Below are positions 1 through 32,483 of a DNA stretch of 64,000 nucleotides, in pieces. The position numbers and the translations under genes are program-made. Under the pieces are notes generated by a model, which did no database searches, was not told the origin of the DNA, and saw nothing but the letters and a program-made list of their open reading frames with translations. Numbering within the stretch: position 1 is the first letter of the stretch; each line of letters starts with the position of its first letter. The stretch comes from a plasmid: the sequence record NZ_CP109675.1. One strand, 5' to 3'.

Positions 1-244
1 GCTGAGTACCGAAAGACTATTGAATGCTTTTGGATGTATTCAAAATGTTGTTTCGCAGGCAAACGCGAATGATACTCAGACAGAAATAAAAAGTTAAAAT
101 ACGGTTTAATTAATATTCAGTGGCGCAATAAATTAATAACAAATATGGCTCACCGGTCAGGTGAGCGGGATTATGTTGATAATCCGGAATGCTGGCAAAC
201 AATAAGAATTTGTATTAATTTAAAGAAAATCTAAAGGATGTGCT

Positions 245-1114
245 ATGCGAAAAAACCCTCCCCTGAAAGCCCTCAAATCTTTTGAAGCTGCCGCCAGGCA
301 CCTCAGCTTTACCCGGGCCGCGAAAGAGCTGTTCGTTACCCCAGCCGCCGTCAGCCAGCAAATAAGAATTCTTGAGGAGCGTCTGGGTATCACGCTTTTC
401 AGACGACAGTCCCGCAGCCTGGAGCTCACAGAGGAAGCCGCGATCCTCTATGACGGACTGCACGAAGCGTTCCGGACTATAGAAAATATTTATCATCAGT
501 TTGAAGGCGGGGAATATAAGGAAGTCCTGACGCTGGGCTGTGTAGGCACGTTTGCCCTTGGCTGGCTTGAGGCCAGGCTGGGGCGTTTCCAGACGCTTCA
601 CCCCCATGTGGATGTCCGTCTGCGTATTAACAATAATATCGTCAATATTGCTGCAGAGGGGCTCGATCTGGCTATCAGGTTTGGTACCGGGATATGGCCC
701 TCAACCAATAATGAAAAAATATTCGACGCGCCGTTTGGCGTGCTGTGCGACCCAGAAATGGCCGGACGGCTTCGTGCACCCCGGGATTTGCTGAACGAAA
801 GGCTGCTTCGTTCTTACCGGATGAATGAATGGGAAGACTGGTTTCGTGAGGCCGGGGAGGACGTCGCCGGCATCAGCGGTACGGTCTATGACTCGTCAGG
901 ACTGATGATCCAGACCGTCATACATACCGGCGGCGCGGCGCTGGTTCCCCTGAATATGTTTACACGGGAGCTCACATCCGGGCAGGTTGTGCAGCCCTTC
1001 GAAACGGTTGTCAATGCCGGCAGCTACTGGCTGACATATTCAAAATCCAGAATCATACGCCCCGTAGTCAGAACCTTCAGGGCCTGGCTTCTCAACGAAG
1101 CTCATAGTGATTAA
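245..1114 (+). CDS. LysR-family transcriptional regulator
   Basis: N-terminal LysR-type HTH (LKALKSFEAAARHLSFTRAAKELFVTPAAVSQQIRILEERLG) followed by a ~200 aa substrate-binding-like domain. A single long ORF. Confidence 0.85.
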   Translation: MRKNPPLKALKSFEAAARHLSFTRAAKELFVTPAAVSQQIRILEERLGITLFRRQSRSLELTEEAAILYDGLHEAFRTIENIYHQFEGGEYKEVLTLGCVGTFALGWLEARLGRFQTLHPHVDVRLRINNNIVNIAAEGLDLAIRFGTGIWPSTNNEKIFDAPFGVLCDPEMAGRLRAPRDLLNERLLRSYRMNEWEDWFREAGEDVAGISGTVYDSSGLMIQTVIHTGGAALVPLNMFTRELTSGQVVQPFETVVNAGSYWLTYSKSRIIRPVVRTFRAWLLNEAHSD

Positions 1115-1122
1115 ACTATCGG

Positions 1123-1629
1123 TCAGACAAGTCTTTTATTGTACCACGGGAGAAAAATCCTTAACGTGCCTCCCCAGAATACACCATCAAACAGTCCGGT
1201 GAGCCCACCCATCAGCATGCAAAAACTCGCTGACGCCGCAAGACCGGGCTGCAGGAAGATGGCTGAAGTAAGAATGAATTTTGTACAAAAAGTAATAACA
1301 ATCATTCCCAGCGTCAGCGGCGTCCCGGCCCTGATAACCCTGCCCGGGTTGCCTGAATCCTGCAGGGGAGGTTGTGATCCCCACATCCAGTAGCCGAGTG
1401 CTCCTCCCGCGAGTAATCCTGCGATCATCATGGTGAGACTTACCCCTGCCCTTTCTGTTTCAGTCATAATTCCGTAGCCTCCCCAGACAAGAAACACTAC
1501 CGGGAGCAAAAAAAGCCGTCCGGTTTTCATTTCCCTGTCATAAAGGGCGGTAAAACCACGACGAAGTAAAAAAGCCAGCAGGAGCCAGACCCAGATCGGT
1601 ACATGACTGAAAAATTCAGACAGGTTCAT
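1123..1629 (-). CDS. small integral membrane protein (about 4 TM helices), hypothetical
   Basis: 168-aa ORF made of hydrophobic segments. Lies on the same strand directly downstream of the XRE regulator and the MBL-fold hydrolase. Confidence 0.5.
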   Translation of the reverse strand: MNLSEFFSHVPIWVWLLLAFLLRRGFTALYDREMKTGRLFLLPVVFLVWGGYGIMTETERAGVSLTMMIAGLLAGGALGYWMWGSQPPLQDSGNPGRVIRAGTPLTLGMIVITFCTKFILTSAIFLQPGLAASASFCMLMGGLTGLFDGVFWGGTLRIFLPWYNKRLV

Positions 1630-1707
1630 GGTTTTTCCTTTCCGTTTATTGATGATTACATTTAGCCGTAGAGAATTGCTCCAGCGTTTTACTTGATTGA
1701 CCCCAGG

Positions 1708-2205
1708 TTATTTTCCTTTTTTTGTGCCCGGACGGAGGAGATTATTCAACCTGCGCTGTTGCCATGACTTAAGCCGATCGTGAATAACAAACACCCTCAG
1801 CCCCCTGAACATAACAAGGCTGCCCCATATGGCGGTCACAACGAGGGACCAGTAGCTTTCCGGAGTCAGCAGATAGTTGATAACCATCATTGCGGTACAT
1901 GTCAGAAGAGCCGTTGCGAGTATCCGCCAGAACGTCATTTCCCGGGCAACCTGGGCTCTGGCATCACTGATACGTTCATCCAGCGCGTTGACGGCATCCC
2001 CGTCCTCTTCCGAGAGCTCAGATACGCTGACGTCAAAGGCAGAGGCAAGCGCACTCAACGTTTCAAGACCAGGTTTCTGCCCTTTTTCAGTGCGCTGAAC
2101 CGTTCTGACAGAAAGCGAGGCGACTTCTGCCAGCTGCTCCTGAGACCAGGCCTTCTTCAGGCGAAGGGCTTTCACTTTCTCTGCGACGGTCATCGATAAC
2201 CTCAT
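1708..2205 (-). CDS. XRE/Cro-type HTH regulator with C-terminal transmembrane helices
   Basis: N-terminus LRLKKAWSQEQLAEVASLSVRTVQRTEKG is a classic HTH_XRE. The C-terminal ~70 aa are hydrophobic (two predicted TM helices). Confidence 0.7.
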   Translation of the reverse strand: MRLSMTVAEKVKALRLKKAWSQEQLAEVASLSVRTVQRTEKGQKPGLETLSALASAFDVSVSELSEEDGDAVNALDERISDARAQVAREMTFWRILATALLTCTAMMVINYLLTPESYWSLVVTAIWGSLVMFRGLRVFVIHDRLKSWQQRRLNNLLRPGTKKGK

Positions 2206-2331
2206 GTATGTTTGTAGCGGCTAAGATATTCGCATTTCCTGCCCGCACCGTAAACGACACGGGCCTGACAGAAAGACGACACAAGGGCGACAGACGCTGC
2301 CTGAATGACGGGATAAGCCTGTATCACAGAC

Positions 2332-3135
2332 TTACTCTTCAAAAATAACGGTATCTCCGCACGCTACAGGATGCGTATTCCTGAGCCACAGTTTTCCCCA
2401 TCTTCCGGTGCAGTGGCAGCCCAGAACATGCTCAGGTGCGAGCTCACGCAAAAATGCTTTCAGCCTTATCAGCCTGAGCGGTGACGCTGCCCGCAGATGA
2501 AATCCCCCGATAAGGGCGTAGACGCGGTTTTCTCCCGTAATGTTCACGCAGTGGCGAACGGTGTTCTCCAGCCCACGGTGGCCACACCCGGTCATAATGA
2601 CCAGCCCGCGGGACGAGCGCCAGATAAGTGCGCCTTCGTCAGACACATAATCAGGCGTGGCGTTCCTGTAATCGGTATAACCCCAGGGCTCCGGGCTTTC
2701 CACGGGGATTTCACCACTCCAGACAAAACGTCCCGCCACGACGCGCGGGGTTTTGCTGTACTCCACGTCAAGACCGCAAAAACGCTCCACGACCGAAAGT
2801 TTCTTAAGAGGAATGACCTTTCCCGGCAGCCTGACAGCGGCATACCTTTCCCGTAATACTCCGGGATGACAGATAATCCTCGTCCCTGGGTCAAGAGACG
2901 TTATTCCGCCGCTGTGATCGTAATGCCCGTGTGATAATACAACCGCGTTCAGATCTGTCAGCGGCTCGTTGATTAGCCTGGCGTTGTGAGCAACGGTTTC
3001 ATCCGGGCCGGAGTCAAACAGTATCCGGCTCTCTCCGTCGTCCAGGAGGATGGAGAGGCCTGCACGGGACTGCATTCCTGCAGCCGCGTGAGGCGACAGA
3101 TGGTTTTCGACCAGAATGGTCATTTTGAGTGCCAC
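2332..3135 (-). CDS. MBL-fold metallo-hydrolase
   Basis: Metallo-beta-lactamase-fold zinc-binding motif VLSHGHYDHSGG, plus downstream His and Asp residues. 267 aa. Confidence 0.8.
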   Translation of the reverse strand: MALKMTILVENHLSPHAAAGMQSRAGLSILLDDGESRILFDSGPDETVAHNARLINEPLTDLNAVVLSHGHYDHSGGITSLDPGTRIICHPGVLRERYAAVRLPGKVIPLKKLSVVERFCGLDVEYSKTPRVVAGRFVWSGEIPVESPEPWGYTDYRNATPDYVSDEGALIWRSSRGLVIMTGCGHRGLENTVRHCVNITGENRVYALIGGFHLRAASPLRLIRLKAFLRELAPEHVLGCHCTGRWGKLWLRNTHPVACGDTVIFEE

Positions 3136-3499
3136 AGGTCAGTTCTCCCTTAGCGGTTAATTACCCCATTGTCCCGACAGCAGCGCTGTTACGTGTTTCA
3201 GGGCGGCATTTTTCTCACTGCAGCAGATAAAGAGTTATCAGCATGCCAGCCCGCCACATCATGCTCCCCGATAGCAGCCAGATTTCAGCAGTGACAACGA
3301 AAATGAGTGATGCTGTCAGAACGATATCAACCCGGTTAAAAAAATAATTAACCTCTTTAAAATCTGCGCTTATATTCATTACAGAGTACATCCCGCTGCG
3401 TGCACCTGCTTAAATAACCCTGAAACGTAAAGGGATTAATGATTATCACGTCACTAAACAGTGATAGTGTATTCATGGAAAGACCCCAAAGGACGAATA

Positions 3500-5047
3500 A
3501 TGAAATTACGAAAAAGGGCGCTGGCTGCCGGAATTATCGTACCCGCAATCCTGGCTACACTGCTGTCGTCAGGGATGGCCTGGCGCCAGCTGAGCAGGGA
3601 CACGTCCGTGACGGCAGACATACTGATGAGCCAGGTCGACCACATCACGTCCATTGCCCGCCATGCAAGCCTGGTAACCGCCAGGCTCGCCACTCAGCCC
3701 TGTGAAAGCGTCCTGCAGCAGATGACGGAGAACGGCGCCCTCACGCCCTACATCCGCAGCACCGGGCTTATACGGGATGGTAAAGTAATCTGCTCCTCCG
3801 TGACCGGAGCCAGACAGCAAAGTGCCGATGAGATTTTTGGTGTTGCCGTTTCAGTACCCACAGGGAAGATAAACGTTATCGCCACGGAGGGGACCAGCAG
3901 CGTGCCCGGGCACGTGGCTGTTATCTACGCTTATGGCGCCGGCAACCGGACGACGGCATTCAGCGTGGTGGATGCCCGATACGTTACGGACCTGATGGAC
4001 TCCCTGGATGATGAGAATCATTCGGTTCAGCAGCTCAGGTTCAGTGATGGCCCCGTCATTTCCGGGCAGGAGAAAATCTCCCCACGTGTGAAAGTGTTCA
4101 CAGCTGAGTTCCACTCTGCCGCGAGTCAGGCGCAGCTTCAGGTTCTTACACCGACGCTGTCGCTTCGCCATTACATCCTGCGTAATCTGCTTTTCCTCGG
4201 TCCCCTGTCCCTGCTACTGACCCTGGCCATGCTGTACATGTGGCATCGCTGGGATTCTAGAAAGATGTCTCTGGCGGAAGAAATCAGGAAAGGGATGGCA
4301 GACGGCGAATTCAGCGTGCATTACCAGCCGGTCTGTGACACCGCGACTGGTGCCTGCTCCGGCGCCGAAGCCCTGATGCGCTGGCAGCGTACTGACGGTA
4401 GAAGCATTTCACCGGTGGTGTTTATCCGGGCCGCTGAAGAGGAAGGTCTGATTGTCAGCCTGACGCAGCATCTCTTCAGCCTGATAGAAGACGATGTCAG
4501 GGCATGGCAGGTGACTGACCCCTTCCATCTGGGCGTGAATATCGCAGCCCCTCACCTGACGGACCGGTCGTTTACCGCTGACGTACTGAGACTGTGGGTT
4601 TCTCTCGATCCCGCTTTTCGACTGGTGCTGGAAATTACCGAGCGCAGCCTGGTTGAGGACACTGAAGCGGCATCAGCGAAACTTCATGAGCTACGCCAGA
4701 AAGGCTGTCAGGTGGCCGTGGATGATTTTGGTACGGGCTACTGCTCGCTGAGCCTGCTTCAGAGCCTGCCGGTGGATTACCTGAAAATTGACAAAATATT
4801 CATCGACAGCCTGACGTCGGCCGGTGCGGACACGCCGGTACTGGACACCATTTTGGGCCTCAGCAGACGGCTGGGGCTGACCACCATTGCCGAGGGCGTA
4901 ATGGCCGCACATCAGGCTGAATGGCTGATAAAAAATCAGGTACCTTACGTTCAGGGTTATTATTATGCCAGACCCATGCCGGCTGCCGCGTTTTATCAGT
5001 GGTACCGGGAGCAGGGCGTGAGACTGAAAGACGACGTTATTGCGTAA
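3500..5047 (+). CDS. CSS-motif-domain EAL c-di-GMP phosphodiesterase (membrane-anchored)
   Basis: ATG at 3500 follows the RBS aaggacgaataATG. N-terminal TM helix, periplasmic domain with a CSS motif (KVICSSVTG), second TM, then an EAL domain (GAEALMRWQ ... DDFGTGYCSLSLL ... KIDKIFI). Confidence 0.85.
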   Translation: MKLRKRALAAGIIVPAILATLLSSGMAWRQLSRDTSVTADILMSQVDHITSIARHASLVTARLATQPCESVLQQMTENGALTPYIRSTGLIRDGKVICSSVTGARQQSADEIFGVAVSVPTGKINVIATEGTSSVPGHVAVIYAYGAGNRTTAFSVVDARYVTDLMDSLDDENHSVQQLRFSDGPVISGQEKISPRVKVFTAEFHSAASQAQLQVLTPTLSLRHYILRNLLFLGPLSLLLTLAMLYMWHRWDSRKMSLAEEIRKGMADGEFSVHYQPVCDTATGACSGAEALMRWQRTDGRSISPVVFIRAAEEEGLIVSLTQHLFSLIEDDVRAWQVTDPFHLGVNIAAPHLTDRSFTADVLRLWVSLDPAFRLVLEITERSLVEDTEAASAKLHELRQKGCQVAVDDFGTGYCSLSLLQSLPVDYLKIDKIFIDSLTSAGADTPVLDTILGLSRRLGLTTIAEGVMAAHQAEWLIKNQVPYVQGYYYARPMPAAAFYQWYREQGVRLKDDVIA

Positions 5048-5166
5048 GATCAATATTAACCGGATTTTCGCCTGTTTATGTCATGGCGTTGATGTTACAT
5101 GTATCTCCTTCTTTATATTTTGAATGAGTGATGTCACACCATTTTCTAACTTCAGCCGAGGTCAGC

Positions 5167-5799
5167 ATGATTATTTCCAGCCTGATAGCGATTGCCACCG
5201 TTCTGACAATGGGGGTTATCAGCCCGGGTCCCAGTTTTATCTATGTCGCGCGGAATGCGGTCGTCCACTCCCGACGCCACGGGCTTGTGACCGCTCTCGG
5301 TACCGGCGTGGGCGCTGCCATTTTTTCGCTGGCCGCCATGCTCGGCCTGCAGAAGCTGCTGCTCATGGTTCCGGAGCTGTTCATGGTGCTGAAAGTTGCG
5401 GGCGGGGCCTATCTGTTATGGCTTGCTGTTAAAATGTTCAGGGACGCAACCCGGCCTCTGTATCTGGCGCTTGACGGCGATAAAAATGACGGCAGGACGC
5501 TGATGATGACGTTCCGGGATGGCTTACTGACGCAGCTCAGTAACCCTAAAACAGCAATCATTTTTGCATCGATCTTCAGCGCCCTGCTGCCTGAAAATAT
5601 CCCGGCCCTTTTTTATGTCGCGATCCCGCTGATGAGTTTCCTGATTGATTTTGGCTGGTACGCGATCGTTTCGCTCTGCCTGTCCTCCGAAAGACCGCGC
5701 AGGGCTTATCTTCGTCTGAAAACCTCAGTCGATCGGGCATCATCCGCGGTTCTGGCAGCACTGGGTATGCGGCTGATTTATTCCTCCTTTGTTAAATAA
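5167..5799 (+). CDS. LysE/RhtB-family amino-acid exporter
   Basis: ATG at 5167 follows the RBS gaggtcagcATG. About six hydrophobic helices. The VISPGPSFIYV motif is typical of LysE/RhtB translocators. Confidence 0.8.
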   Translation: MIISSLIAIATVLTMGVISPGPSFIYVARNAVVHSRRHGLVTALGTGVGAAIFSLAAMLGLQKLLLMVPELFMVLKVAGGAYLLWLAVKMFRDATRPLYLALDGDKNDGRTLMMTFRDGLLTQLSNPKTAIIFASIFSALLPENIPALFYVAIPLMSFLIDFGWYAIVSLCLSSERPRRAYLRLKTSVDRASSAVLAALGMRLIYSSFVK

Positions 5800-5978
5800 C
5801 AGGACCAGACTGCTTTACCTGTCAGCAGGGTAAAAAGGCTCATAACTGATGAAAAATTTCACAATGCAGAAAGAATGAACTGCAACCTGTGAGATATTTG
5901 CCCTGCTTTCCTCAGATTGTCAGGGCTTTTTTTGCGCGATTTAATCAGATTAAAAAGTATCTGTAAGGAATTGATGTC

Positions 5979-6374
5979 ATGATGAAAAATATTTTAGCTG
6001 CATTAACTGTTTTCATATCGTTTTCGGCAATGGCTGAGAAAAGGAATATACACAATGAGTGCTCCTTTAGAGCCGCTACGCTTTCGGATATGGTGGCGCT
6101 GTATAAAGAGAGGCAATGCAGCAAAAATCAGGCTAAGCAGTTCATCCATGAGGTGGCGACCGGTGAAACTCAAACTCTCAACAGCTGTATCCCAAAAAGC
6201 AGATACAAAAACCCAGACTTCATTGATGGCAATAACTTTGAAAAGTGGTCTGATTCTTTAATTGAGAAAATATGGTCCAATACAATGAAAGGCCCTGACA
6301 ACTACGGTACTTTTATGGATGCGTGCATGAAAAATCCTGACAAGTATATCGGCGGTCAGTGGCTCTACAAATGA
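5979..6374 (+). CDS. small secreted Cys-containing protein, hypothetical
   Basis: Signal peptide MMKNILAALTVFISFSAMA|EK. Sits in an AT-rich (low-GC) islet. No recognisable family. Confidence 0.5.
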   Translation: MMKNILAALTVFISFSAMAEKRNIHNECSFRAATLSDMVALYKERQCSKNQAKQFIHEVATGETQTLNSCIPKSRYKNPDFIDGNNFEKWSDSLIEKIWSNTMKGPDNYGTFMDACMKNPDKYIGGQWLYK

Positions 6375-6719
6375 CATGTGCAGGTTCAATTCATCGCTGA
6401 GGGCACATCGGCTAAACCAGCACCGTATATGGTGTCAGTAACCATTGCTGGCGTAGATAAGGCTGGATGACACAATCCAGTCAGTAAGGGGATGATCATG
6501 AGAGGATTTTTTAACAGATTAATAGCAACCTTTTAAAGTTAAGTTTGTGTGATAACAAATAAATTCTGAACAAAAAGGATCTGTTCAGCCGGACGGTCCG
6601 GTACAACCTTCATCCGGATAAGTACCGGACCGATAATCCGGTCGAAGACTGGCGCCGCCACTTGAGCCACCAAAATACTGTCGCGCTTTCGGATAGTTAT
6701 AGCCATAACCAGCACCACC

Positions 6720-21595: not shown

Positions 21596-23155
21596 ATGAG
21601 CGCTATTACTGCAGAATCTCTTCTGCTGTTTGATGACGGTGACAGGAAAGAAATCCTCATTGATACCAACCAGCGAGTCGACCCAGGTGTACAGGCCGCG
21701 CTGATGGACTTAATGAACAAACATCCGGGGATCAAACATCGGTTTGTCACTCTCTCAGACTTACGAGAGGCGCGAAAAAAGCAGGAAGCTCAACCTCAGG
21801 CCAGCGATAAGACAGGATTAACTCTGGCAGACCTGGATGGAGACAGCAGCCAAAGTGAACAACGGATCCTGAACTATTTTTCAGTGGCCAAAAAGCTCGG
21901 TTCCTCAGATATTCACTTTCTCATTTCAGATTCACTCTTCCAGGTCAAAATGCGCGTCCACGGCTATTTGCATGTGGTGGATGAACGTCGGCGGGAGGAA
22001 GGTATATCCCTCTGTGCCACCTGTATTCTCTCGATGTCGGATGTGTCAGAAACCAGCTTCTACCCACACCGGGAACAGGATGCACGACTCTCCCCGGCAA
22101 TGATGCGGAAAATAGGTCTGTTTGGTGCCCGCTACAGTCACCGCCCAACTGGCGATGGGCTGATTGCGGTTATGCGACTTATTCCGGATGACGGTAACAA
22201 CGTACCTGACTTCCTGCAACTGGGTTATCTACCCGAACAAATCAAGCTGCTTAAACGCATGATTGACCGACCTGAAGGTAAGATCATCCTCTCGGGGCCA
22301 ACTGGTTCCGGTAAATCCACCACGCTCCGTACCGCCTGCCGTGAATATCTGGATACCAACCCCGGGCAACACCTTCTGACCATCGAAGACCCACTTGAGG
22401 GGCAGGTCGTGGGAGCTGTTCAGACGCCAATCATCTGCGACAAATCAGATGAGGAAGCAGTACGTATCGCCTGGGGAAAAGCTATCTCGTCAGCGCTGCG
22501 ACTGGATCCGGACGCCATTATGGAGGGTGAAATGCGTGACCTTGTCTCGATGCTGGCCACCATTTATGCCGCCCAGACCGGACACCTGGTGATGACAACC
22601 CTGCACACAAACTCAGCACTCGGCATCCCGGAGCGTATGGTTACGCTCGGTGTTAACGAAAATCTGTTGTGTGATGCCCAGCTTTTAATCGGATTAATCA
22701 GTCAGCGTCTGGTACCCACACTATGTCCGGAATGCCGTATATCCTGGCAGGATAAGGTCAACACCTTAAGTGACGAGGAAAAGAACTGGCTGGAGAAATA
22801 CTGCAATATTGAAGGCGTCTGCTCGACCGACAGGCTCTATTTCCATAACCCGGACGGGTGTGAAGCATGCACACAGGTAGTGGAGATCAACGGCCAGGTG
22901 CGTGGCAAAGTCGGTCAGGGTATCAGGGGACGTACCGTCATTGCCGAGGTTATCGAGACCAATAACCGTCTTTTTAAGCTGCTGAAAACTGACGGCAAGG
23001 TTGCGGCTCGCCAGTTCTGGATAAACAACATGCAGGGGATCAGCCGTGTCCGGCACGTTCTGCATAAAATCAACGAGGGGCTGGTCGACCCGCTGATGGC
23101 CAACCGGATCATTCCACTCGATGAAGATGAACGTCTGGAGGTGGATGATGCGTGA
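21596..23155 (+). CDS. pilQ: PilQ, GspE/PilB-family assembly ATPase
   Basis: Walker A GPTGSGKST. Asp box and His box. Tetracysteine motif CPEC ... C..C. 519 aa versus 517 aa in R64. Confidence 0.9.
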   Translation: MSAITAESLLLFDDGDRKEILIDTNQRVDPGVQAALMDLMNKHPGIKHRFVTLSDLREARKKQEAQPQASDKTGLTLADLDGDSSQSEQRILNYFSVAKKLGSSDIHFLISDSLFQVKMRVHGYLHVVDERRREEGISLCATCILSMSDVSETSFYPHREQDARLSPAMMRKIGLFGARYSHRPTGDGLIAVMRLIPDDGNNVPDFLQLGYLPEQIKLLKRMIDRPEGKIILSGPTGSGKSTTLRTACREYLDTNPGQHLLTIEDPLEGQVVGAVQTPIICDKSDEEAVRIAWGKAISSALRLDPDAIMEGEMRDLVSMLATIYAAQTGHLVMTTLHTNSALGIPERMVTLGVNENLLCDAQLLIGLISQRLVPTLCPECRISWQDKVNTLSDEEKNWLEKYCNIEGVCSTDRLYFHNPDGCEACTQVVEINGQVRGKVGQGIRGRTVIAEVIETNNRLFKLLKTDGKVAARQFWINNMQGISRVRHVLHKINEGLVDPLMANRIIPLDEDERLEVDDA

Positions 23156-24242
23156 AATGCACTTCCTGAAACGACTCCGATATAACCTGGTCCGTAAGAC
23201 GTTCAGCGGTCAGTATCGTGTTCAGTTCTATGATGCGCTGCGGTTTCTGATTGAAAACCGACAGAAACTAAAGCCTTCACTGGAGAAAATGCGCAATGCA
23301 TGGACGAACTTCGGCCAGAACTGGCATCCCTACGTTGAGCTGACGGACGACTGTATTGATGCGTTAAGGGAAAACAGCGGCGAAAAAACGCTGGAGCGCA
23401 CCCTCACCCGGTGGCTACCTGCCGCAGAAGCTTCCGTTATAAGCGCCGGCATACGCAGTGAGTCACTTCCACGCTCACTAAGATACGCCTGTGCCCTGAC
23501 CCACGCGGGTAAGCGTATTCGCGCAGCTGTATGGCAGATGGCCATCTATCCGATTGGTTTTGCCATCATGTTGTCCAGTTCCATCTATGTACTGAATGCC
23601 GAACTACTTCCTACGCTGACAGAAATCAGCCCGCCAGAGAACTGGACCGGGGCGCTAGGGTTTCTTTACGGGATCTCAGTGTATTTCAGTGAGTATGGAG
23701 TGATAACCGGCATCGCCGCCACCGCTTTAATTATCTGGACGGTCTGGTCACTCCCGCGCTGGCATCGCCCTGACAGGCTTCGTCGTATATTCGACGGGCT
23801 GATGCCATGGTCGGTTTATAAGGATATTCAGGGCGCGACCTTCCTGTTGAATATCGGTGCACTGCTACAGTCCGGCGTAAGAACCAAAGACGCGCTGGAG
23901 ATCCTGCTGGAAACGGCATCCCCCTGGCTTGCTGTGCGTATTGATGCGATTACCGAACATGTGCGTGAAGGTAAACATTTCGGACTGGCCCTGAAGGACT
24001 GTGGTTACGATTTTCCGTCGCAGGAAGCGGCCAACTTCCTCTCCCTTTTGCAGGGTGATGGAGACGATGAAATCATCATTAACTACGGACAGCGCTGGCT
24101 TGAACAAACCCTGGAGCGCGTAGCAAAGCGCGCTGTTGTAATCCGCGGACTCATGTTCCTGGCAATGATCCTGATGCTTCTGCTTCTGGTCCTTGTCGTT
24201 ATGGATATTAATGCCCTTAACAGCTCGTCGGGCTCTTTTTAA
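23145..24242 (+). CDS. pilR: PilR, GspF/PilC-family polytopic inner-membrane platform protein
   Basis: ATG ATG at 23145 overlaps the pilQ stop, after the RBS tggagg. Multiple TM helices. Size matches R64 PilR. Confidence 0.8.
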   Translation: MMREMHFLKRLRYNLVRKTFSGQYRVQFYDALRFLIENRQKLKPSLEKMRNAWTNFGQNWHPYVELTDDCIDALRENSGEKTLERTLTRWLPAAEASVISAGIRSESLPRSLRYACALTHAGKRIRAAVWQMAIYPIGFAIMLSSSIYVLNAELLPTLTEISPPENWTGALGFLYGISVYFSEYGVITGIAATALIIWTVWSLPRWHRPDRLRRIFDGLMPWSVYKDIQGATFLLNIGALLQSGVRTKDALEILLETASPWLAVRIDAITEHVREGKHFGLALKDCGYDFPSQEAANFLSLLQGDGDDEIIINYGQRWLEQTLERVAKRAVVIRGLMFLAMILMLLLLVLVVMDINALNSSSGSF

Positions 24243-24255
24243 ATGAGGAAACATC

Positions 24256-24870
24256 ATGCAATTTAATTCTGAACCAACTTCTCAGCCATACAAACCAACT
24301 AAGGCGCTTTCGCAACACCGCGGCTGGGGCTTCCTGGAGCAGGGCAGCATCGCGCTAATCGTACTGGTCGTCATCGGGATCGTCCTGGCGGGATACTTCG
24401 CCCTCAAAAATAACGTCAACGTAGGTAAGGAGTCGTCGAACATTCAGTCGCTCATCACAAGCACCCAGAACATGATGAAAGGAGGAGATGGATACACATT
24501 CACTTCCGGTGCCAAAATGATGGGCTCGCTTATCCAGATGAAACTTCAGCCTAAAAGTATGACTGTACGTGGTACCCCCTCTTCCGGCACCGCCACGCTT
24601 TATAATGGATGGGGTGGAGCCGTGACACTGTCACCTGTCACAGTCTCCGGGTTCTCAAATGGATTCTCTTTGACCTACGAAATGGTTCCTCAGGGTGCCT
24701 GCGTCTCGCTCGTCACAGCACTCAGTCGCGCCAAAATTGCTGATGCGATCACCATCAACTCCACGGCGCACAGTGATGGGGTTGTGACAACTGAAGAAGC
24801 CAGCGCGCAATGCACAGCTGACAATGGCAGCACAGGTACCAACAAGCTGATCTTCACGATGAACAGCTAA
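24256..24870 (+). CDS. pilS: PilS, type IVb prepilin (major thin-pilus subunit)
   Basis: Long basic leader ending HRG|W, followed by a hydrophobic helix (GSIALIVLVVIGIVLAGYFAL). 204 aa. RBS gagg. Confidence 0.8.
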   Translation: MQFNSEPTSQPYKPTKALSQHRGWGFLEQGSIALIVLVVIGIVLAGYFALKNNVNVGKESSNIQSLITSTQNMMKGGDGYTFTSGAKMMGSLIQMKLQPKSMTVRGTPSSGTATLYNGWGGAVTLSPVTVSGFSNGFSLTYEMVPQGACVSLVTALSRAKIADAITINSTAHSDGVVTTEEASAQCTADNGSTGTNKLIFTMNS

Positions 24871-24879
24871 GGAGACAAC

Positions 24880-25437
24880 ATGCGGAGAGAACGCATTCTC
24901 TCCTGCCGCCTGGTAATGACGCTGCTCATTCTGTCCTTTTCCTCCGGCCCATTGATGGCCAGCACGAACTCCCCGCCTGCGACTTTTGATGCCTGCTTTA
25001 ACAATGCCGGTGCCCGATACCAGATCGAGCCACTGCTGCTTAAGGCAGTGGCCAAAGGGGAGTCTTCGTTCCGTCCATGGGTCACAAACACCAACCGGGA
25101 TAAAAAGGGTAATCCGGTCAGCACGGACTATGGGTTGATGCAGATTAACTCAACCCATGTTCCTAAGCTCGTCCGGATGGGTGTCATCCAGGGGGCAGAA
25201 GACCTGCTGAAGCGCCCCTGTCTGAACATTCAGATAGGGGCGTGGATCCTGGCCAGCCACTTTCAGGTATGTGGTGTGACCTGGAATTGCCTCGGGTCTT
25301 ACAACGCTGGATTCCGTAAGGATCGGCACGAAACCCGTGAGCAATATGCCAACCGTATCTGGGGGTTCTATCTGGAGCTGAAAGGTCTTCGAGTCTGTCG
25401 ACAGGTGAAAGGAAAGCGAATATGCGAACCATCATAG
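24880..25437 (+). CDS. pilT: PilT, lytic transglycosylase (SLT domain)
   Basis: Signal peptide plus SLT motifs (AKGESSFRPW ... DYGLMQINSTH). 185 aa, like R64 PilT. Confidence 0.85.
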   Translation: MRRERILSCRLVMTLLILSFSSGPLMASTNSPPATFDACFNNAGARYQIEPLLLKAVAKGESSFRPWVTNTNRDKKGNPVSTDYGLMQINSTHVPKLVRMGVIQGAEDLLKRPCLNIQIGAWILASHFQVCGVTWNCLGSYNAGFRKDRHETREQYANRIWGFYLELKGLRVCRQVKGKRICEPS

Positions 25438-26096
25438 TTACGAGTCTGACGACAGCATGGAGTCTGCCGTTACTACTGGGGTTCGCAATCATTGGCAGAG
25501 TCCTGATGTGCCGCGTGCTCGAATTTCTGGAGGAGCACCCGATAAACGTTAAGGAACAGAAAACAACCTTGACGGCAGGGATTTGGTTCTTCGCTACTTT
25601 CAGTATGATCGCTGCCCTTGCACCGGTTCCTGTTGCTGATCGGGCAGCTGCCATAGTGATGATGGCCTTCCTTCTTCAGGCCGGGAGCACAGACGCAGTC
25701 AGTGGATATCTGCCACGAACCTTCACAGTACGGCTGTTACTTGGGGGATTGCTCTGGGGAGCAGCATCAGACGTTTCAGTTGAAAGTATATCTACACAAC
25801 TGGCGGAGATCGCAGCAACAGTCAGTCTGATGGCACTACTGAGTGTCCTGGTAAACCGGGGCACTCAGCGTCTGGGTCAGGGGGATTTATGGCTGATAAC
25901 TGGCCTGACTGCCTGGATGGGTGGGAAAGATGCTGCACTGGTCACTCTGTTTGGAGCAGCAGCCTTTGTTCTCTGGCTGCTAACCTGGAATGTATCGGGG
26001 AAAAAAGAGGGACCGCTGGGACCCTGGCTTTGTCTTAGCGGGAGTATTTTCCAGCTCACTCTTCTGTATCAACCTGTATGGATATCGATTCTATGA
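25422..26096 (+). CDS. pilU: PilU, prepilin peptidase (A24 family)
   Basis: Polytopic membrane protein of 224 aa. Position and size match R64 PilU. Overlaps pilT and pilV. Confidence 0.7.
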
Positions 26097-27430
26097 AAAA
26101 GCATGATCGTGGCTGGGCAAATCTTGATGTCGCTCTGTCGCTCCTTGTTGTGATGGCAATGGCCGTCTTTGGACTCACTAAATACAAGGACTGGCAACAG
26201 GAGAAAAACTGGCAGGTTGAAGCAGCCCATATCAGTACCTACGCAGCAGCTGCGCGTGGCTACGTCGGGCGAAACTATGCCACGCTGTTAAGTGCAACCA
26301 GCACTACCGCGCCGACAGTGATCACCACAGCCATGCTTAAAAATACCGGTTTTCTGCCGTCCGGTTTTACCGAAACAAACAGCCAGGGTCAGCGTATGAA
26401 CACGTACCTGGTCAGAAACGGGCAAAACACGGAATTGTTGCAGGGAATGGTGGTATCAAGCGGTGGAAGTGTATATCCGGCCAAAGCATTGAGGCTGATA
26501 TCGAGGGACATCAAAACCGGATTCGGAGGATACATCGATGACGGTAAAACTGCCACCGGTGCCTTGCGGACTTGGAAAATCCCGCTGAGTAGCTACGGAG
26601 CTACTTCCGGAAATGGACATATCGTCGTGCTCCTCTCAACAGATGAGTTATCTGGTGCACAGGAGGATAACGACAGGTTGTACCGTTTTCAGGTTAATGG
26701 CCGCCCCGACCTGAATAAAATGCACACAGCAATAGACATGGGGGGAAATAATCTGAACAGCGTCGGTACCATTAATGGTAAGACAGGAACATTCAGCGGA
26801 AATGTGAGTGGTTTAAATGGTATTTTTTCCCAGAATATTACAGCGGGAGCACAGGTAAAAGGAGCTACAGTCCGTGCTGACAGTGACATCAGCGCCGGAC
26901 GCAATATTACGGCAACAAACGAGGTCTCTGGTGCCACAGTTAAAGCAACAGGCAACCTTTCAGCTGGCGGTGTTTTGCAACTGGGTCAGGTAAACGTTGC
27001 AGGTATAGCCTGTTATCCGAATGGGCTGATAAGCCGTGATGCCAGTGGTGGCGTACTTTCCTGTCAATCCGGTGTGTGGAAGGGTACAGGCATAACCGAG
27101 GGTAATTACACTGTTCTCGGGACATTTAAAGGTTCTTACTCCGGTACGAATAATACAGGAAAGCAATATCGCCTGTACGTAACAGGCGGCAATCCACCTA
27201 GCAAAAAAATCAACTATGGAGATGCTGATAACTGCGTTAATACATACTCGCTCGTCGCTGAAGTTGGGGGGCTGTACGTTGCAAGAGATTTAAATGGCAA
27301 CTCTCAGTGGCAAAAATCAGGGACAGTGAACTTTGAAGTCCCGGATGGGTCTTCATTTTCTATTGTCTCAAATGGAATGATGTCTTACGGCTGTGACTAC
27401 GGATCGTTCACTGTCTTTCGTTTCCAATAA
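26078..27430 (+). CDS. pilV: PilV, minor pilin/adhesin with shufflon-encoded variable C-terminus (expressed orientation)
   Basis: Prepilin-like N-terminus (DRG|[21 protein letters not shown]). The ORF crosses the 19-bp sfx repeat at 27061-27079 (encoding CQSGVW). The 117-aa C-terminus is encoded inside the invertible segment. Confidence 0.85.
27061..27079 (+). repeat. shufflon crossover repeat sfx (left)
   Basis: ctgtcaatccggtgtgtgg, related to the R64 sfx core (GTGCCAATCCGGT). A perfect inverted copy lies at 27935-27953. Confidence 0.8.
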
Positions 27431-27586
27431 CCTTGACAGTCTGATATGAGAAATGTGCTGGTTGTGTAACGTGTTGCAGATTATTTACCTGTACTCTGTC
27501 GTCTTAGCTTACCAACAGTCAAACTCCACAACTCTGAATGTTAGTGGGATTTAGCGATAAATAACGGCAGTTAAGCAGCCTTTTGA

Positions 27587-27940
27587 TCAGTGGTAGGTGA
27601 CGAGATTGAAACTCCCAGGTGAGCATCCGTAAGAGGGTAAGGGGTTTGACGTTACACTAAACGTCGATCCCGCTGGGATAATGAAGTTTATAGTTCCGGA
27701 TTTACTCCAATCTGAGTTAGCGGTACCAGCCGATGTAATGATACGTCCGTCAACCATACCTTTAAGATCCCATGTATTACGGCAATTGTCACCGTCTTTA
27801 ATTCCTCTATCTATAGTGGAAACGCCGCCGGAAGCGTAAACCGTCATCGGGCGGCCAGTATCGTTAACCGATGTGTAAGTGGAAACAAATGCCCCTAGCG
27901 AAGAGTAACTACCGTTATAAATGGAGCCGGAAATCCACAC
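27587..27940 (-). other. silent alternative PilV C-terminal cassette (pilV') in inverted orientation
   Basis: Minus-strand ORF of 117 aa beginning directly at the right sfx repeat (VWISGSIYNGSYSS ...). Homologous to but distinct from the expressed C-terminus, which ends ... [15 protein letters not shown]. This cassette ends ... SYGCSPGSFNLVTYH. Confidence 0.8.
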
Positions 27941-27953
27941 ACCGGATTGACAG
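27935..27953 (-). repeat. shufflon crossover repeat sfx (right, inverted)
   Basis: ccacacaccggattgacag is the exact reverse complement of 27061-27079. Confidence 0.8.
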
Positions 27954-28004
27954 TGTTATTGCATTTTTCGCACAAGGCTTTATTTTCTTCGCCTTTTGGG
28001 AGTA

Positions 28005-29168
28005 ATGATGTCTTCTGTTGCGCGTATTAGAAAAATGTCTCTCAGTCGGGGCCTCGATAAGTATTACGAGTCGGTATCAGTTCACAAAAAGGGACATCTT
28101 CAGGAATTTTACCGGGTCAACGTCATTAAGCGTCACCCACTGGCTAACCGGAACATGGATGAGATCACCACAGTTGATATTGCAGCCTACCGTGATGAAA
28201 GGCTGATGCAGTTCAACCCAAGGACTGGGAACCCTATCACTGGCAATACAGTAAGGCTTGAACTGGCGCTTTTATCATCTCTATTCGGGATCGCTCGCGT
28301 GGAATGGGGAACCTGTCGAAGCAACCCAGTCGAACTGGTACGTAAACCTAAAGTATCCAAAGGTCGTGATCGCCGCCTGACATCCAGTGAAGAGCGCAGA
28401 CTGTCCCGTTATTTCCGGGAACGAAACTTAATGCTGTATATAATTTTTCATCTCGCGCTTGAGACAGCCATGCGGCAGGGTGAAATCCTTAACCTGCAAT
28501 GGGAATACATCGACCTGCAGCACGGCGTAGCACATCTGCCCGATACCAAGAATGGCTCATCACGAGATGTTCCTCTCTCACGTAAGGCTCGTAACCTGCT
28601 TCAGATGATGCCGGCCCAGCTAAAAGGTAAGTTGTTTTCCTATACGTCATCCGGTTTCAAAAGCGCCTGGCGGAATGCCCTCAAGGAACTCTCTATCGAG
28701 AATCTGCATTTTCATGATCTACGGCACGAGGCCATCAGCCGTTTCTTCGAACTCGGTACGCTGAACGTTATGGAGGTCGCAGCTATATCAGGCCATCGCT
28801 CGATGAATATGCTAAAACGCTACACCCATCTGAGAGCTTACCAGCTGGTCAGCAAGCTGGACGCGCGACGGCGCCAGACTCAAAAGATCGCCCCCTACTT
28901 CGCGCCCTATCCTGCCCAGGTCGAGCAGGACAGCGAAGAATCAGGTGACATCAAGGTAATGCTATGCGATTTCGAAAATCTGACAGTATCAGCGCCGACT
29001 CGCGAACTTGCTTTGGCCCGCGCCAGCGAACTGCTACTGCGGACACTGGCTCTTGCAGCCCAGCGCGGCGAACGAGTCCCCGCGCCGGGAGAGCTTCCTG
29101 TCAGGACAAACAATCACATCATGATATGTCCGCTTAACCCCGACCTGGCACTGTCGGCCCAGGTATAA
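28005..29168 (+). CDS. rci: Rci, shufflon-specific tyrosine recombinase
   Basis: Near-collinear similarity to R64 Rci by recall: [13 protein letters not shown] ... [13 protein letters not shown] ... [14 protein letters not shown] ... [17 protein letters not shown] ... [17 protein letters not shown] ... MICPLNP. ATG ATG at 28005 follows the RBS gggagtaATG. Confidence 0.9.
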
Positions 29169-29187
29169 CTTTTCTTCTGGAGGGGCT

Positions 29188-29664
29188 GTGTTTCTGATTT
29201 TCCTTTCAGCAGTACCACTAACGCTACTGCTGTATTGCCCGATAATGACAATCGTCAGTGCCGTGACGCCCTGGAAAGGGTTCCGAACGGCCTTGGTTCG
29301 ACATCGTAAGAAGCATTACACAACCCTGCATCTGTCGACATTTGACCGGGTTGGCCATCTTAATCTCCGGCGTGCGGCACGCTTTCACCGGAGCTTTCTG
29401 GTCACGTTGCAGCTGGCGCTACAAAGAGACAGCTCGCCGGTGTACTTCACATCCCATCTGATGCGACCGGCACACCTGAAAAGCATGACTATCCTGATGT
29501 CAAAAATGGGGGAAACGCACCGCTGGCGCTGCACCACAGTCACGATACCTCCAGCCATCAGAAACGGGATACGGCTGCAAACATTTTTACAGGAATGGCG
29601 CTGGATAACCGTACCTGAAACCGGCGTGCTTGTACTCATTCGGCCGCGCCGGAAAGCTCGCTAA
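29188..29664 (+). CDS. hypothetical ORF (Arg-rich; possibly non-coding)
   Basis: 158-aa ORF with a biased composition and no RBS. Kept only because no competing ORF exists there. Confidence 0.25.
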   Translation: MFLIFLSAVPLTLLLYCPIMTIVSAVTPWKGFRTALVRHRKKHYTTLHLSTFDRVGHLNLRRAARFHRSFLVTLQLALQRDSSPVYFTSHLMRPAHLKSMTILMSKMGETHRWRCTTVTIPPAIRNGIRLQTFLQEWRWITVPETGVLVLIRPRRKAR

Positions 29665-29810
29665 AAAAGCAAATACACAAACGTAATTAAAACGAACACG
29701 CAAACGCAGTCGATCTACACGATCGAATTAACTCGTTATACATACGCGTCACGATTAATTATTCTTTAACCCACTGAGTAACAAAGTTTAATTTCACTTA
29801 AGGGGGCCAT

Positions 29811-30647
29811 GTGGCAAACAGTCTCACAGCAATTTTCACCTCGCTTCTGGCGCTCCCCGACCTTGATCGGAACAGGATTGCAGAACTGCTTCAGCGCAAT
29901 GATAAGAAGCCCATGCAGACCACATCACTTCGGTTGCGACCTGGTACCCGTCAACTGATTGATGAGCTGTCAGGCAAAATTGGAATTTCTCAGTCAGAGT
30001 TGCTGAGTATGGTAATTGAAGGCTCTTTTCGCGATATCTTCCTGCCATTCAGTAATACTGCAATCAGCGTTATAGACCGCTTTGAGCTACTGATGCAGTC
30101 ACACGAGCTTAGCCCGACAGACATCGCAGAACTGCTGTCGTCATGGAATGTTCGGGTTAGTGTGCTACAGGACAGGGAACGTACAATGGACTATCTGTCC
30201 ACCCCGCTTCTCCAGGCGCTCGCTGACTGGTTTTTCGTTTCTCCTGGCTGGTTGCTTGGAAGCAACGTTCCCCCTGTCGACACAGGCAGCGCGAGTCATC
30301 AATGGCCACAAACGGAAGAAAATTTCCGGGAGGTAATTATTCCTTCAGCCGAAAATAATAATGACAGCATTATTTTCTGGAAGACTGAAAATACAACTGA
30401 GGATAAAGATCAGGAACGAAACGGCATATTAATTAAGAAGAAAATATCTTCATCTCAGCTGACATATTTTCCGGTGCTATCCATTATTACGCGCACCCTG
30501 AATACAGAGCAGGAATGCTGGAAAGAGCGACTCCTCAGGGAACACGCAGCAACAGGTACTATCCGCCTCGTCACCTTAGGTGCAGGGCTGGCAACAGCAC
30601 TTGAACACGGAACAACGTTACCCGTACTTATATTCAGACAGCTTTAA
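29811..30647 (+). CDS. hypothetical protein (R64 traE-position gene)
   Basis: 278 aa, GTG start after the RBS aaggggg. No recognisable family. Called by position relative to rci and the tra genes. Confidence 0.5.
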   Translation: MANSLTAIFTSLLALPDLDRNRIAELLQRNDKKPMQTTSLRLRPGTRQLIDELSGKIGISQSELLSMVIEGSFRDIFLPFSNTAISVIDRFELLMQSHELSPTDIAELLSSWNVRVSVLQDRERTMDYLSTPLLQALADWFFVSPGWLLGSNVPPVDTGSASHQWPQTEENFREVIIPSAENNNDSIIFWKTENTTEDKDQERNGILIKKKISSSQLTYFPVLSIITRTLNTEQECWKERLLREHAATGTIRLVTLGAGLATALEHGTTLPVLIFRQL

Positions 30648-30752
30648 ACCACGCTGAAAATCTGAATTAAAAAAGAAAAAGGAAATTTTGATGCTGCCGC
30701 ATCAGGACCTACTTTTGCCCTAAATCCAGACAGGACTACAGGAAATTTACTT

Positions 30753-31958
30753 ATGAAAAAGACTCACATTGCAAAAACACTGATATCTTTCGCCGTCATG
30801 ATGGCATTTCATGCGGGAGCTGCAACCTCTTATATGGAAGCCCGCAGCGATGCGATGGGCGGGACTGGCGTAGCTTCCGCACATTACGGTACAGCTGCCT
30901 TATCCAACCCGGCACTCCTGACGAAATTTGGCGCGAACGATGACTTCAGCCTGGTGCTGCCGTCCGTAGGTGTCCAGGTAGCAGACCCAGATAATGCCAT
31001 CGATAATACCGATGACGTAAAGGATCTGTGGAACAATTTTGACAATGCAGTTGACCGCCAGAGCGGTGTCAGCGAAAGTGCAGCCGCATTACGCAACAAG
31101 TTGGAAGACCTGAAGGACGTAAAAGCAAACGGACAGGTCGGGGCATCTGTCATTGCTACCACTCCTAATAAAGTGCTTCCATTTGCGGTTGTCGTGAAGT
31201 CCTGGGGCACCGTTTCCGTAAACGGCAAGGTCAGTGATCACGATCTACAGTATCTCGATAATATCGCCAGCGGCGCCATCCCGTCAGATACGGTAGACAA
31301 GGATGCACTAACGTCCCGCGCTTATGGTCGGGCTGCCGTTATCACCGATGTCGGTGTGGCTATGGCGCACGAATTTGAAACAGCGGGACATAGCTGGTCA
31401 CTGGGGATCACGCCCAAGTATCAACGCATCGATCTTTTCAACTACAGCGCAAAGGTAAACGACTTCGACAAAAATGACCTGAATTCGGATGACTACCGCA
31501 ATACTAAAACCGGATTTAACGCCGACATCGGTCTGGCAACAAACCTCGGCGACAACTGGATGCTGGGTCTCGCGGTACAGAACATCATCGCCCGCACCGT
31601 TGACACTAAAGCAGTGAATGGTGAGAAAGAAACATTCAAAGTAAAACCACAGGCCACTGCAGGCGTGGCATGGAGTAACAGTATCCTGACCACCGCTCTC
31701 GATGTGGATCTGACCGAAGCAAGCCGCTTTGAGCGGGATGACAAACGCCAGTTCGCCAGTGTGGGTGCCGAACTGAATGCCTGGAACTGGATGCAGGTAC
31801 GCGCGGGTTATCGTCAGAACATGGTCTCCAGCGAGGGCAACGCTTTCACTGCGGGTCTGGGCTTCTCTCCTTTCGACGTAGTACATCTGGACCTGACCGG
31901 TATTGCAGGAACCGATCGTACCTACGGTGCGGTCGCACAGTTGCAGTTCACGTTCTGA
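30753..31958 (+). CDS. outer-membrane beta-barrel protein (FadL/TraF_2-like; R64 traF-position gene)
   Basis: Signal peptide (MMAFHAGA|AT). FadL/TraF_2-like N-terminal motif EARSDAMGGTGVASA ... GTAALSNPALL. Alternating beta-strand pattern. C-terminal aromatic residue (QFTF). Confidence 0.65.
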   Translation: MKKTHIAKTLISFAVMMAFHAGAATSYMEARSDAMGGTGVASAHYGTAALSNPALLTKFGANDDFSLVLPSVGVQVADPDNAIDNTDDVKDLWNNFDNAVDRQSGVSESAAALRNKLEDLKDVKANGQVGASVIATTPNKVLPFAVVVKSWGTVSVNGKVSDHDLQYLDNIASGAIPSDTVDKDALTSRAYGRAAVITDVGVAMAHEFETAGHSWSLGITPKYQRIDLFNYSAKVNDFDKNDLNSDDYRNTKTGFNADIGLATNLGDNWMLGLAVQNIIARTVDTKAVNGEKETFKVKPQATAGVAWSNSILTTALDVDLTEASRFERDDKRQFASVGAELNAWNWMQVRAGYRQNMVSSEGNAFTAGLGFSPFDVVHLDLTGIAGTDRTYGAVAQLQFTF

Positions 31959-31964
31959 TAGTTT

Positions 31965-32000
31965 AGGGGAAGCCCGCAATGGGCTTCCTCTGCCGTTTCT
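31965..32000 (+). terminator. putative terminator after the OMP gene
   Basis: ggaagccc-gcaat-gggcttcc hairpin followed by a T-rich tract. Confidence 0.45.
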
Positions 32001-32483
32001 TTGTGTGTTATCCCCTGTGCACTGGCTGTAATCCCCCCGAACTTTCTCCCGCTGAGACCGTTGAAGATGAAATCTTTCCGATATGTACATGTATTGCATC
32101 AGATCAGCAGTGTTGCTTTCAGCAGCCTGATAACTGCGCCAGCCACCGGTTTTTTTATTCTGTTCATGTTATTTGGATTCAACCACTCGCTCGCCGACAC
32201 CTTCCTTGAACAGGCCCGATCACTTACCGGTGATGCACCACCAGGCATGGTAAGAGAATGTAAACAATCAAACGATAGCGGCCCGCCATCTCCTCTTGTA
32301 ATGCCTCAGGTATGCAAAACGGTATTAATTGATGAGGATGACTGGAAAGAGCGTGTTGACGATACCATCAGGCAGTTTTATCTCACTTTCTCTGTATTCG
32401 GACTTTTATTCTGGATGACCGCAAATAATCAACCATCTGAATTAATTAGCTGGATACGCAGGAAAAGTAAACATCAAAATTAA
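32001..32483 (+). CDS. hypothetical membrane protein (traG-position)
   Basis: 160 aa with two hydrophobic helices. Low GC. No RBS is evident, so the start is uncertain. Confidence 0.35.
   Translation: MCVIPCALAVIPPNFLPLRPLKMKSFRYVHVLHQISSVAFSSLITAPATGFFILFMLFGFNHSLADTFLEQARSLTGDAPPGMVRECKQSNDSGPPSPLVMPQVCKTVLIDEDDWKERVDDTIRQFYLTFSVFGLLFWMTANNQPSELISWIRRKSKHQN

Follow-up and report, generated by a model that had tools for sequence, protein, structure and literature searches.

A 64,000 nt stretch of DNA from an Enterobacter conjugative plasmid (sequence record NZ_CP109675.1, one strand; hereafter the window) carries, at the 3′ end of the pilus adhesin gene pilV, an 893 bp segment bracketed by inverted repeats and followed by rci, which encodes a shufflon-specific tyrosine recombinase. 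The locus is very probably an active single-segment PilV shufflon, in which Rci flips a segment carrying two alternative adhesin tips, and a reduced form of a larger shufflon. A first-pass annotation, made from the nucleotide sequence, had interpreted it as a one-segment shufflon, and all the structural elements of such a system were found to be present and in register. Within the shufflon family the element is an unremarkable, previously annotated one of the minimal, two-state type; the main gain is natural evidence for activity and for a deletion route to that form, while the understanding of shufflons is unchanged.

Orientation of the segment in public plasmids

The first-pass annotation had proposed looking for the inverted orientation, and this was found in both public plasmids and contigs. 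Across window positions 23078–32168 (9,091 bp), plasmid pYRW13-125 of Yokenella (NZ_CP050812.1; sewage, China) shows 586 mismatches to the window, which fall to one after in silico inversion of 27061–27953. Plasmid pEh7_3 of E. hormaechei (NZ_CP126853.1; urine, Switzerland) shows 587 mismatches, reduced to two by the same inversion. These comparisons, with two independently deposited plasmids, show that both orientations occur naturally. The exact 445 aa protein specified by the window (PilV-A) was found on 114 public contigs, and the exact 444 aa protein formed after inversion (PilV-B) on 70. NCBI gives both forms the name 'shufflon system plasmid conjugative transfer pilus tip adhesin PilV', and PilV-B is annotated as pilV in sibling plasmids.

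Breakpoints in public assemblies, found by looking up the products of the two cassettes, are consistent with these counts. In dozens of short-read and metagenome assemblies, contigs break off precisely at a repeat arm's outer edge, or the segment forms a contig of its own (893–1000 nt). One and the same end of a 100%-identical segment was seen joined to the pilV-side junction in some cases and to the rci-side junction in others. Since the 20 nt repeat is shorter than the usual assembly k-mers, the breaks probably reflect the presence of both orientations among the reads of one sample. Taken together, the comparative evidence supports inversion in vivo.

Draft contigs of Citrobacter pasteurii, Citrobacter sp. 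FP75 and Pectobacterium brasiliense begin inside an sfx site (positions 1–20), just upstream of an rci homologue, which is the same assembly-break signature as that of the window's lineage.

Repeats, tip cassettes and recombinase

The sequence CTGTCAATCCGGTGTGTGG occurs at 27061–27079 (+) and 27935–27953 (−), as first annotated, although the perfect match runs to 20 nt (27061–27080 and 27934–27953) rather than 19. The arms are separated by 853 nt, and the invertible segment (27061–27953) measures the 893 bp originally given when both 19/20 nt arms are included; it is this interval that lies in the opposite orientation in otherwise identical plasmids. Each repeat is part of an asymmetric sfx site, and the two sites are arranged head-to-head. 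The proximal site (27049–27079, + strand) consists of a non-conserved left arm, tggcgtactttc (27049–27060), a 7 bp core, CTGTCAA (27061–27067), and a conserved right arm, TCCGGTGTGTGG (27068–27079), and encodes L-S-C-Q-S-G-V-W in the pilV frame. The distal site (27935–27965, − strand) has its right arm at 27935–27946, its core at 27947–27953 and its left arm at 27954–27965 (aatgcaataaca on the − strand). Cores and right arms are identical between the two sites, while the left arms agree at only 1 of 12 positions.

The site departs from the IncI1/I2 consensus, GTGCCAATCCGGTNNGTGG, at only two positions, 1 and 4 of the core. The core is CTGTCAA here, GTGCCAA in IncI1/I2, TTGCCAA in Pectobacterium and CTGCCAA in Erwinia. 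Across the compared elements this variation is confined to third codon positions of the encoded (Ser/Thr)-Cys-Gln, and sites inside one element agree with each other, a pattern that suggests concerted evolution and possible recombinational isolation.

The first-pass annotation had also advised a search for extra repeats, and none were detected. No third copy of the 19-mer was present in the 64 kb window at three or fewer mismatches (0.00 expected from 100 dinucleotide shuffles), and the complete 97,002 bp sequence of pEh7_3 contained the same two sfx sites and no further ones. The shufflon is therefore truly single-segment. Both the window and this whole sibling have two sites and one segment rather than multiple clustered invertible segments, which touches the strict definition of a 'multiple inversion' system and not membership of the shufflon family; published work applies the name shufflon to one-segment elements too, namely those of S. 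Typhi and of IncI2 plasmid pMRY15-131_2. Exact matches to the 9-mer CAATCCGGT are limited to the two sites. Its 25 matches with one mismatch lack the remainder of the site and are not sfx sites; the excess of such 9-mers (27 against 14.6 expected) raised the idea of cryptic sites, which was rejected since none fits the 19-mer at three or fewer mismatches.

The constant region of pilV (26093–27060, + strand) matches the Pfam family Shufflon_N (E-value 3.4e-115). An open reading frame (ORF) begins at 26078, the start first assigned to pilV, but NCBI places the start of the gene at the ATG at 26093 in identical plasmids. The N-terminus resembles that of a prepilin (MKKHDRG|W). Together with the sfx-encoded CQSGVW, the constant part forms residues 1–329, which in silico inversion shows to be common to both PilV forms, and either orientation yields an uninterrupted protein, of 445 or 444 aa.

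Tip cassette A (27080–27430, + strand; 116 codons plus a stop at 27428–27430) is joined to pilV in the window and completes PilV-A. Cassette B (27587–27934, − strand; 115 codons plus a stop at 27587–27589) is silent in the window and becomes the tail of PilV-B after inversion. Two convergent, homologous cassettes had been predicted, and they are real, with 41% identity over the whole length (E-value 1e-30) and two cysteines at equivalent positions; the 117 aa attributed to each was a mechanical ORF length, the tails being 116 and 115 aa. The earlier view that the tips differ mostly in their last ~100 residues did not hold, as divergence extends along the whole length.

Tip A is a distant homologue of the IncI1 'shufflon protein A' cassettes (27–39% identity). 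A search of a large protein database with tip A gave just seven short matches, one of them a Salmonella 'shufflon protein A' (60% identity), and nothing identifiable as S. Typhi. Neither PilV nor the tips matched a family in NCBIfam, and the PDB contained no protein related to PilV in sequence.

In comparison with the related plasmid pOP-I, the ratio of non-synonymous to synonymous substitution (dN/dS) is 0.03 in the constant region, and 0.10 and 0.04 in tips A and B, respectively. By this measure both cassettes are under purifying selection, and the low value for tip B indicates that the currently silent cassette is maintained as coding sequence.

The convergent stop codons are separated by a 156 bp non-coding spacer (27431–27586), which diverges faster than the cassettes. 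Nothing above shuffled controls was found in it in a search for a bidirectional terminator or structured RNA (folding z = 0.6). An apparent lack of this spacer in pOP-I, where blastn gave no hit, was rejected as a sensitivity effect; by eye, the two spacers are collinear and strongly diverged. A metagenome contig (ENA ERZ17988949, NODE_17076; 2,125 nt) contains the same segment and ends exactly at both sfx arms, and carries an insertion of ~1.2 kb at the equivalent of window positions ~27433–27438. The insertion is an IS3-family element (HTH_Tnp_1 and rve ORFs) that sits in the spacer just past the tip A stop, and both cassettes are intact.

As first noted, rci directly follows the shufflon (28008–29168, + strand; 386 aa; Pfam Phage_integrase, E-value 4e-25), its start being 54 bp past the distal repeat. 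The protein is 78% identical to the Rci of IncI1 and IncI2 over its full length (residues 6–378), including the C-terminal domain. It carries R156, H236, R239, H263 and Y272, among them the catalytic R-H-R-Y residues, followed by a C-terminal extension of 114 residues that aligns with that of the IncI1/I2 enzymes. Such an extension is the trait that sets Rci apart from Cre and Xer (PMC11852207), and the NCBIfam matches of the protein were limited to sub-threshold ones to Xer families. A catalogue of Rci homologues with variant sfx sites, together with assays of them, has been published (PMC11852207). The window's Rci is 61% identical to the SI-E. E76 enzyme and 49% identical to the SI-E. cloacae enzyme of Katalinic et al.; as these homologues are not close, their activity data transfer only loosely. 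In chromosomes of Pectobacterium, Erwinia and Brenneria, Rci homologues adjoin 3–4 sites with cores TTGCCAA or CTGCCAA.

Proposed mechanism and alternatives

In the proposed mechanism, Rci would recombine the head-to-head, asymmetric sfx sites inside their 7 bp cores (27061–27067 and 27947–27953), so that the segment flips. Judged from the sequence, Rci is the presumed catalyst of this exchange. Because the sites lie in frame in pilV, each flip would replace the tail of the thin-pilus tip adhesin, exchanging the last 116 residues (tip A) for a tail of 115 residues (tip B) and leaving the N-terminal 329 residues unchanged. A donor population would thus be a mixture of two adhesin types. In R64, different PilV tips bind distinct lipopolysaccharide core structures, and by analogy with R64 and TP114 tips A and B may differ in receptor specificity, binding different recipient surface structures and so biasing the choice of recipient in liquid mating. 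Occasional Rci-type deletion between directly oriented sfx sites would give rise to the one-segment architecture.

Several points weigh against an active, Rci-driven shufflon of reduced size. Switching within a culture is deduced from where assemblies break and from how isolates differ. The window's own Rci is presumed to act on a variant core, CTGTCAA rather than GTGCCAA. A 285 bp difference between two relatives (below) is read as a deletion and not as an insertion on grounds of mechanism, and the tips are only 27–39% identical to characterised IncI1 cassettes.

If the locus were instead a frozen remnant, the repeats and second cassette would be relics of a shufflon that no longer inverts. 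The presence of just one segment and two sites would fit this, inactive shufflons exist in nature (for example, that of S. Paratyphi C, according to a source citing Tam 2004), and the distal site of a relative in Mixta theicola is degenerate. In the window, however, both arms are perfect, and the two orientations occur in plasmids differing by 0–2 single-nucleotide polymorphisms. Both PilV forms are common and assemblies break at the arms, while the silent cassette has a dN/dS of 0.04 and Rci is intact with all of its catalytic residues. A frozen state is, on this evidence, very unlikely.

Inversion could also be real but carried out by host homologous recombination on the 20 bp inverted repeats rather than by Rci, and such repeats are in principle able to support RecA-dependent inversion. 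Yet 20 bp is generally held to be no longer than the shortest repeat that RecA recombines efficiently, and the repeat is a canonical sfx site, with an R64-type core and right arm, lying 54 bp from a gene encoding a 78%-identical Rci. Precise sfx-to-sfx deletion is seen in the same plasmid family, and in E. coli the inversion of such sites by homologous Rci enzymes proceeds without cofactors (PMC11852207). Host recombination is a highly improbable source of the inversion.

Shufflons are notoriously misassembled (PMC5430464) and close backbone relatives carry 5–6 sites, but the collapse of a multi-segment shufflon into one segment during assembly deserves almost no credence, as the two-site structure is identical at every base in no fewer than three independent complete assemblies, the stand-alone 893 bp contig recurs in many unrelated assemblies, only the PilV-A and PilV-B tails were seen joined to the constant region in public contigs, and no further sfx sites exist in the whole sibling plasmid.

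An active shufflon flipped by Rci accordingly remains the preferred reading of the locus. Some extensions of it are speculative and, as a set, unlikely to hold. The variant core may insulate the shufflon from the Rci of co-resident IncI1 or IncI2 plasmids; the two-tip form could be a selected, stable bet-hedging switch for Enterobacter and Citrobacter recipients rather than a product of decay; and, in line with a proposal made for S. Typhi, the rate of inversion might control the amount of PilV or aggregation.

Origin, relatives and plasmid backbone

Members of the plasmid family have 2 to 7 sfx sites. In pOP-I (KY126370) and an E. ludwigii plasmid (CP134669) there are three sites and three tips: both long cassettes and an extra 266 bp segment, which is bounded by a second, directly oriented site and encodes a short, Cys-rich tip of 87 aa. 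The 266 bp segment is absent from the window, where the left arm of the distal site is identical to that of the outermost (third) site in pOP-I and CP134669. A second E. ludwigii plasmid from the same hospital, CP134673, equals CP134669 after a 285 bp deletion between direct sfx sites and inversion of the long segment, with 0 mismatches over 5,083 bp. This sequence comparison shows that DNA between sfx sites is precisely deleted in members of the family. Most economically, a rare deletion of the Rci type, joining sfx sites in direct orientation, accounts for the one-segment forms, and the state of the window is best explained as derived from a three-tip shufflon by loss of a segment.

The locus (25422–29168) is also a mosaic. 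Its pilU (98%) and rci (95.5%) are most similar to a lineage that has 5–6 sites and unrelated short cassettes, whereas the long cassettes are found only in the pOP-I/E. ludwigii lineage, with 92% (A) and 90.5% (B) identity, where the flanks are only 82–85% identical. Evidently, lineages have exchanged the cassette module with one another.

Mixta theicola (NZ_CP028274.1) has a two-site, one-segment relative with a segment of ~460 bp and sites at 2017–2035 and 2477–2495 of locus L006. The right arm of its distal site is degenerate (GCTGGT for GNGTGG), and this shufflon may therefore be decaying or locked.

The closest systems differ from the window in segment number, core or setting. The IncI1 plasmids R64 and ColIb-P9 share with it the order pil operon, pilV, shufflon, rci, tra, as well as asymmetric sfx sites, the junction motif LSCQSG-x-W and a 78%-identical Rci, and the window tips are distant homologues of their A/A′ cassettes. 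They have seven sfx sites, four segments and seven tips, compared with one segment and two tips here, and the core is GTGCCAA instead of CTGTCAA (two changes, both synonymous). The replicon type also differs, and the hosts here are Enterobacter, Citrobacter and Yokenella.

The IncI2 plasmids (R721, TP114 and mcr-1 plasmids) are similar in carrying a plasmid-borne shufflon of variable segment number with a 78%-identical Rci, and the variable triplet in the window's right arm, GTG, is of the R721 'e' type. Their transfer system is of the MPF_T type, compared with the Dot/Icm-like I-type of the window, and core and cassettes differ as well. A one-segment shufflon on a plasmid is not new, the precedent being IncI2 plasmid pMRY15-131_2, which has a single segment (BD) and near-identical relatives with two or three (PMC5430464). 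These one-, two- and three-segment IncI2 forms differ only by shufflon indels (PMC5430464). The nearest relatives are pOP-I and CP134669, which have the same long cassettes (92% and 90.5% nucleotide identity), sfx core and outermost left arm as the window, and differ from it in their extra 266 bp segment and third tip.

The resemblance to S. Typhi noted in the first-pass annotation agrees with the literature: in the pil shufflon of Salmonella pathogenicity island 7, according to a source citing Tam et al. 2004, Rci acts on one pair of 19 bp inverted repeats to give two PilV forms. The two elements are alike in having a two-state, Rci-driven, one-segment architecture at the 3′ end of pilV. The S. 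Typhi element is chromosomal, on a pathogenicity island, and its repeats differ by one base, compared with the plasmid location and identical repeats of the window. Morris and Tam et al. reportedly connected the Typhi element not with conjugation but with self-association of the bacteria and with control over PilV expression. The invertible tail-fibre segments of phages (the G segment of Mu with Gin, the C segment of P1 with Cin, and Min of p15B) also swap the C-terminal, receptor-binding part of an adhesin by site-specific inversion and so change target range. They use serine invertases and a Fis-dependent enhancer instead of a tyrosine recombinase, and have no homology to the window in sites or proteins, making them analogues and not family members.

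A widespread lineage of Enterobacter and Citrobacter resistance plasmids (siblings carry blaLAP-2, qnrS1 and others) very probably carries an adhesin switch that still operates between two states; at this locus it will fragment short-read assemblies and confound comparisons of plasmid single-nucleotide polymorphisms. Segment loss by what appears to be sfx-to-sfx deletion has a clean natural example in the E. ludwigii sister pair, and with its two tips and identical arms the window's system would be a simple model in which to measure how fast Rci switches and how specific the tips are. In practical terms the value is modest.

The rebuilt, complete pEh7_3 (97,002 bp) corresponds to window positions 6597–64000 at ~100% identity. 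Annotation of an identical sibling shows the IncI1 gene order around the locus (pilL to pilV, rci, traF to traY, excA, trbC and a MOBP relaxase gene), with an I-type transfer region of Dot/Icm-like Tra/Trb proteins, an IncI1-type excA, a MOBP relaxase and a type IVb thin-pilus operon. The first-pass description of the backbone as IncI-like holds for the transfer and pilus modules, where the tra/pil order is that of IncI1; for the replicon, MOB-suite typed the relatives as rep_cluster_1444 only and not as IncI. RepA belongs to the Pfam family IncFII_repA; this family is common to initiators of the I-complex, so incompatibility is not defined by it.

The sibling pYRW13-125 has been transferred to E. 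coli C600 by broth mating, in a paper that does not mention the shufflon (PMC7468467). All 41 relatives are labelled 'mobilizable' by MOB-suite/PLSDB despite a complete I-type Tra/Trb set. Given that set, and that pYRW13-125 was self-transmissible in the broth experiment, the label is probably a typing gap for a divergent mating-pair-formation system.

Upstream of pilV, annotations of identical sibling plasmids were projected onto the window (offset 23077). Together with the ORFs, they place the distal part of the type IVb thin-pilus operon at 24256–26096 (+ strand), with the genes for the major pilin (24256–24870), a lytic transglycosylase (24955–25437) and a prepilin peptidase (25422–26096), all on the + strand. 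Between rci and traF are two ORFs (29188–29664, 158 aa; 29811–30647, 278 aa) that are conserved in all the relatives examined and gave no match in Pfam or NCBIfam; IncI2 plasmids have a different gene at this position. Positions 1–6596 of the window are an accessory region absent from pEh7_3, which is otherwise identical and has blaLAP-2 and qnrS1 in its place. The ORFs of this region encode a LysR-family regulator, an EAL-domain cyclic di-GMP phosphodiesterase, an RhtB/LysE-type exporter and a protein resembling metallo-beta-lactamase (MBL)-fold hydrolases.

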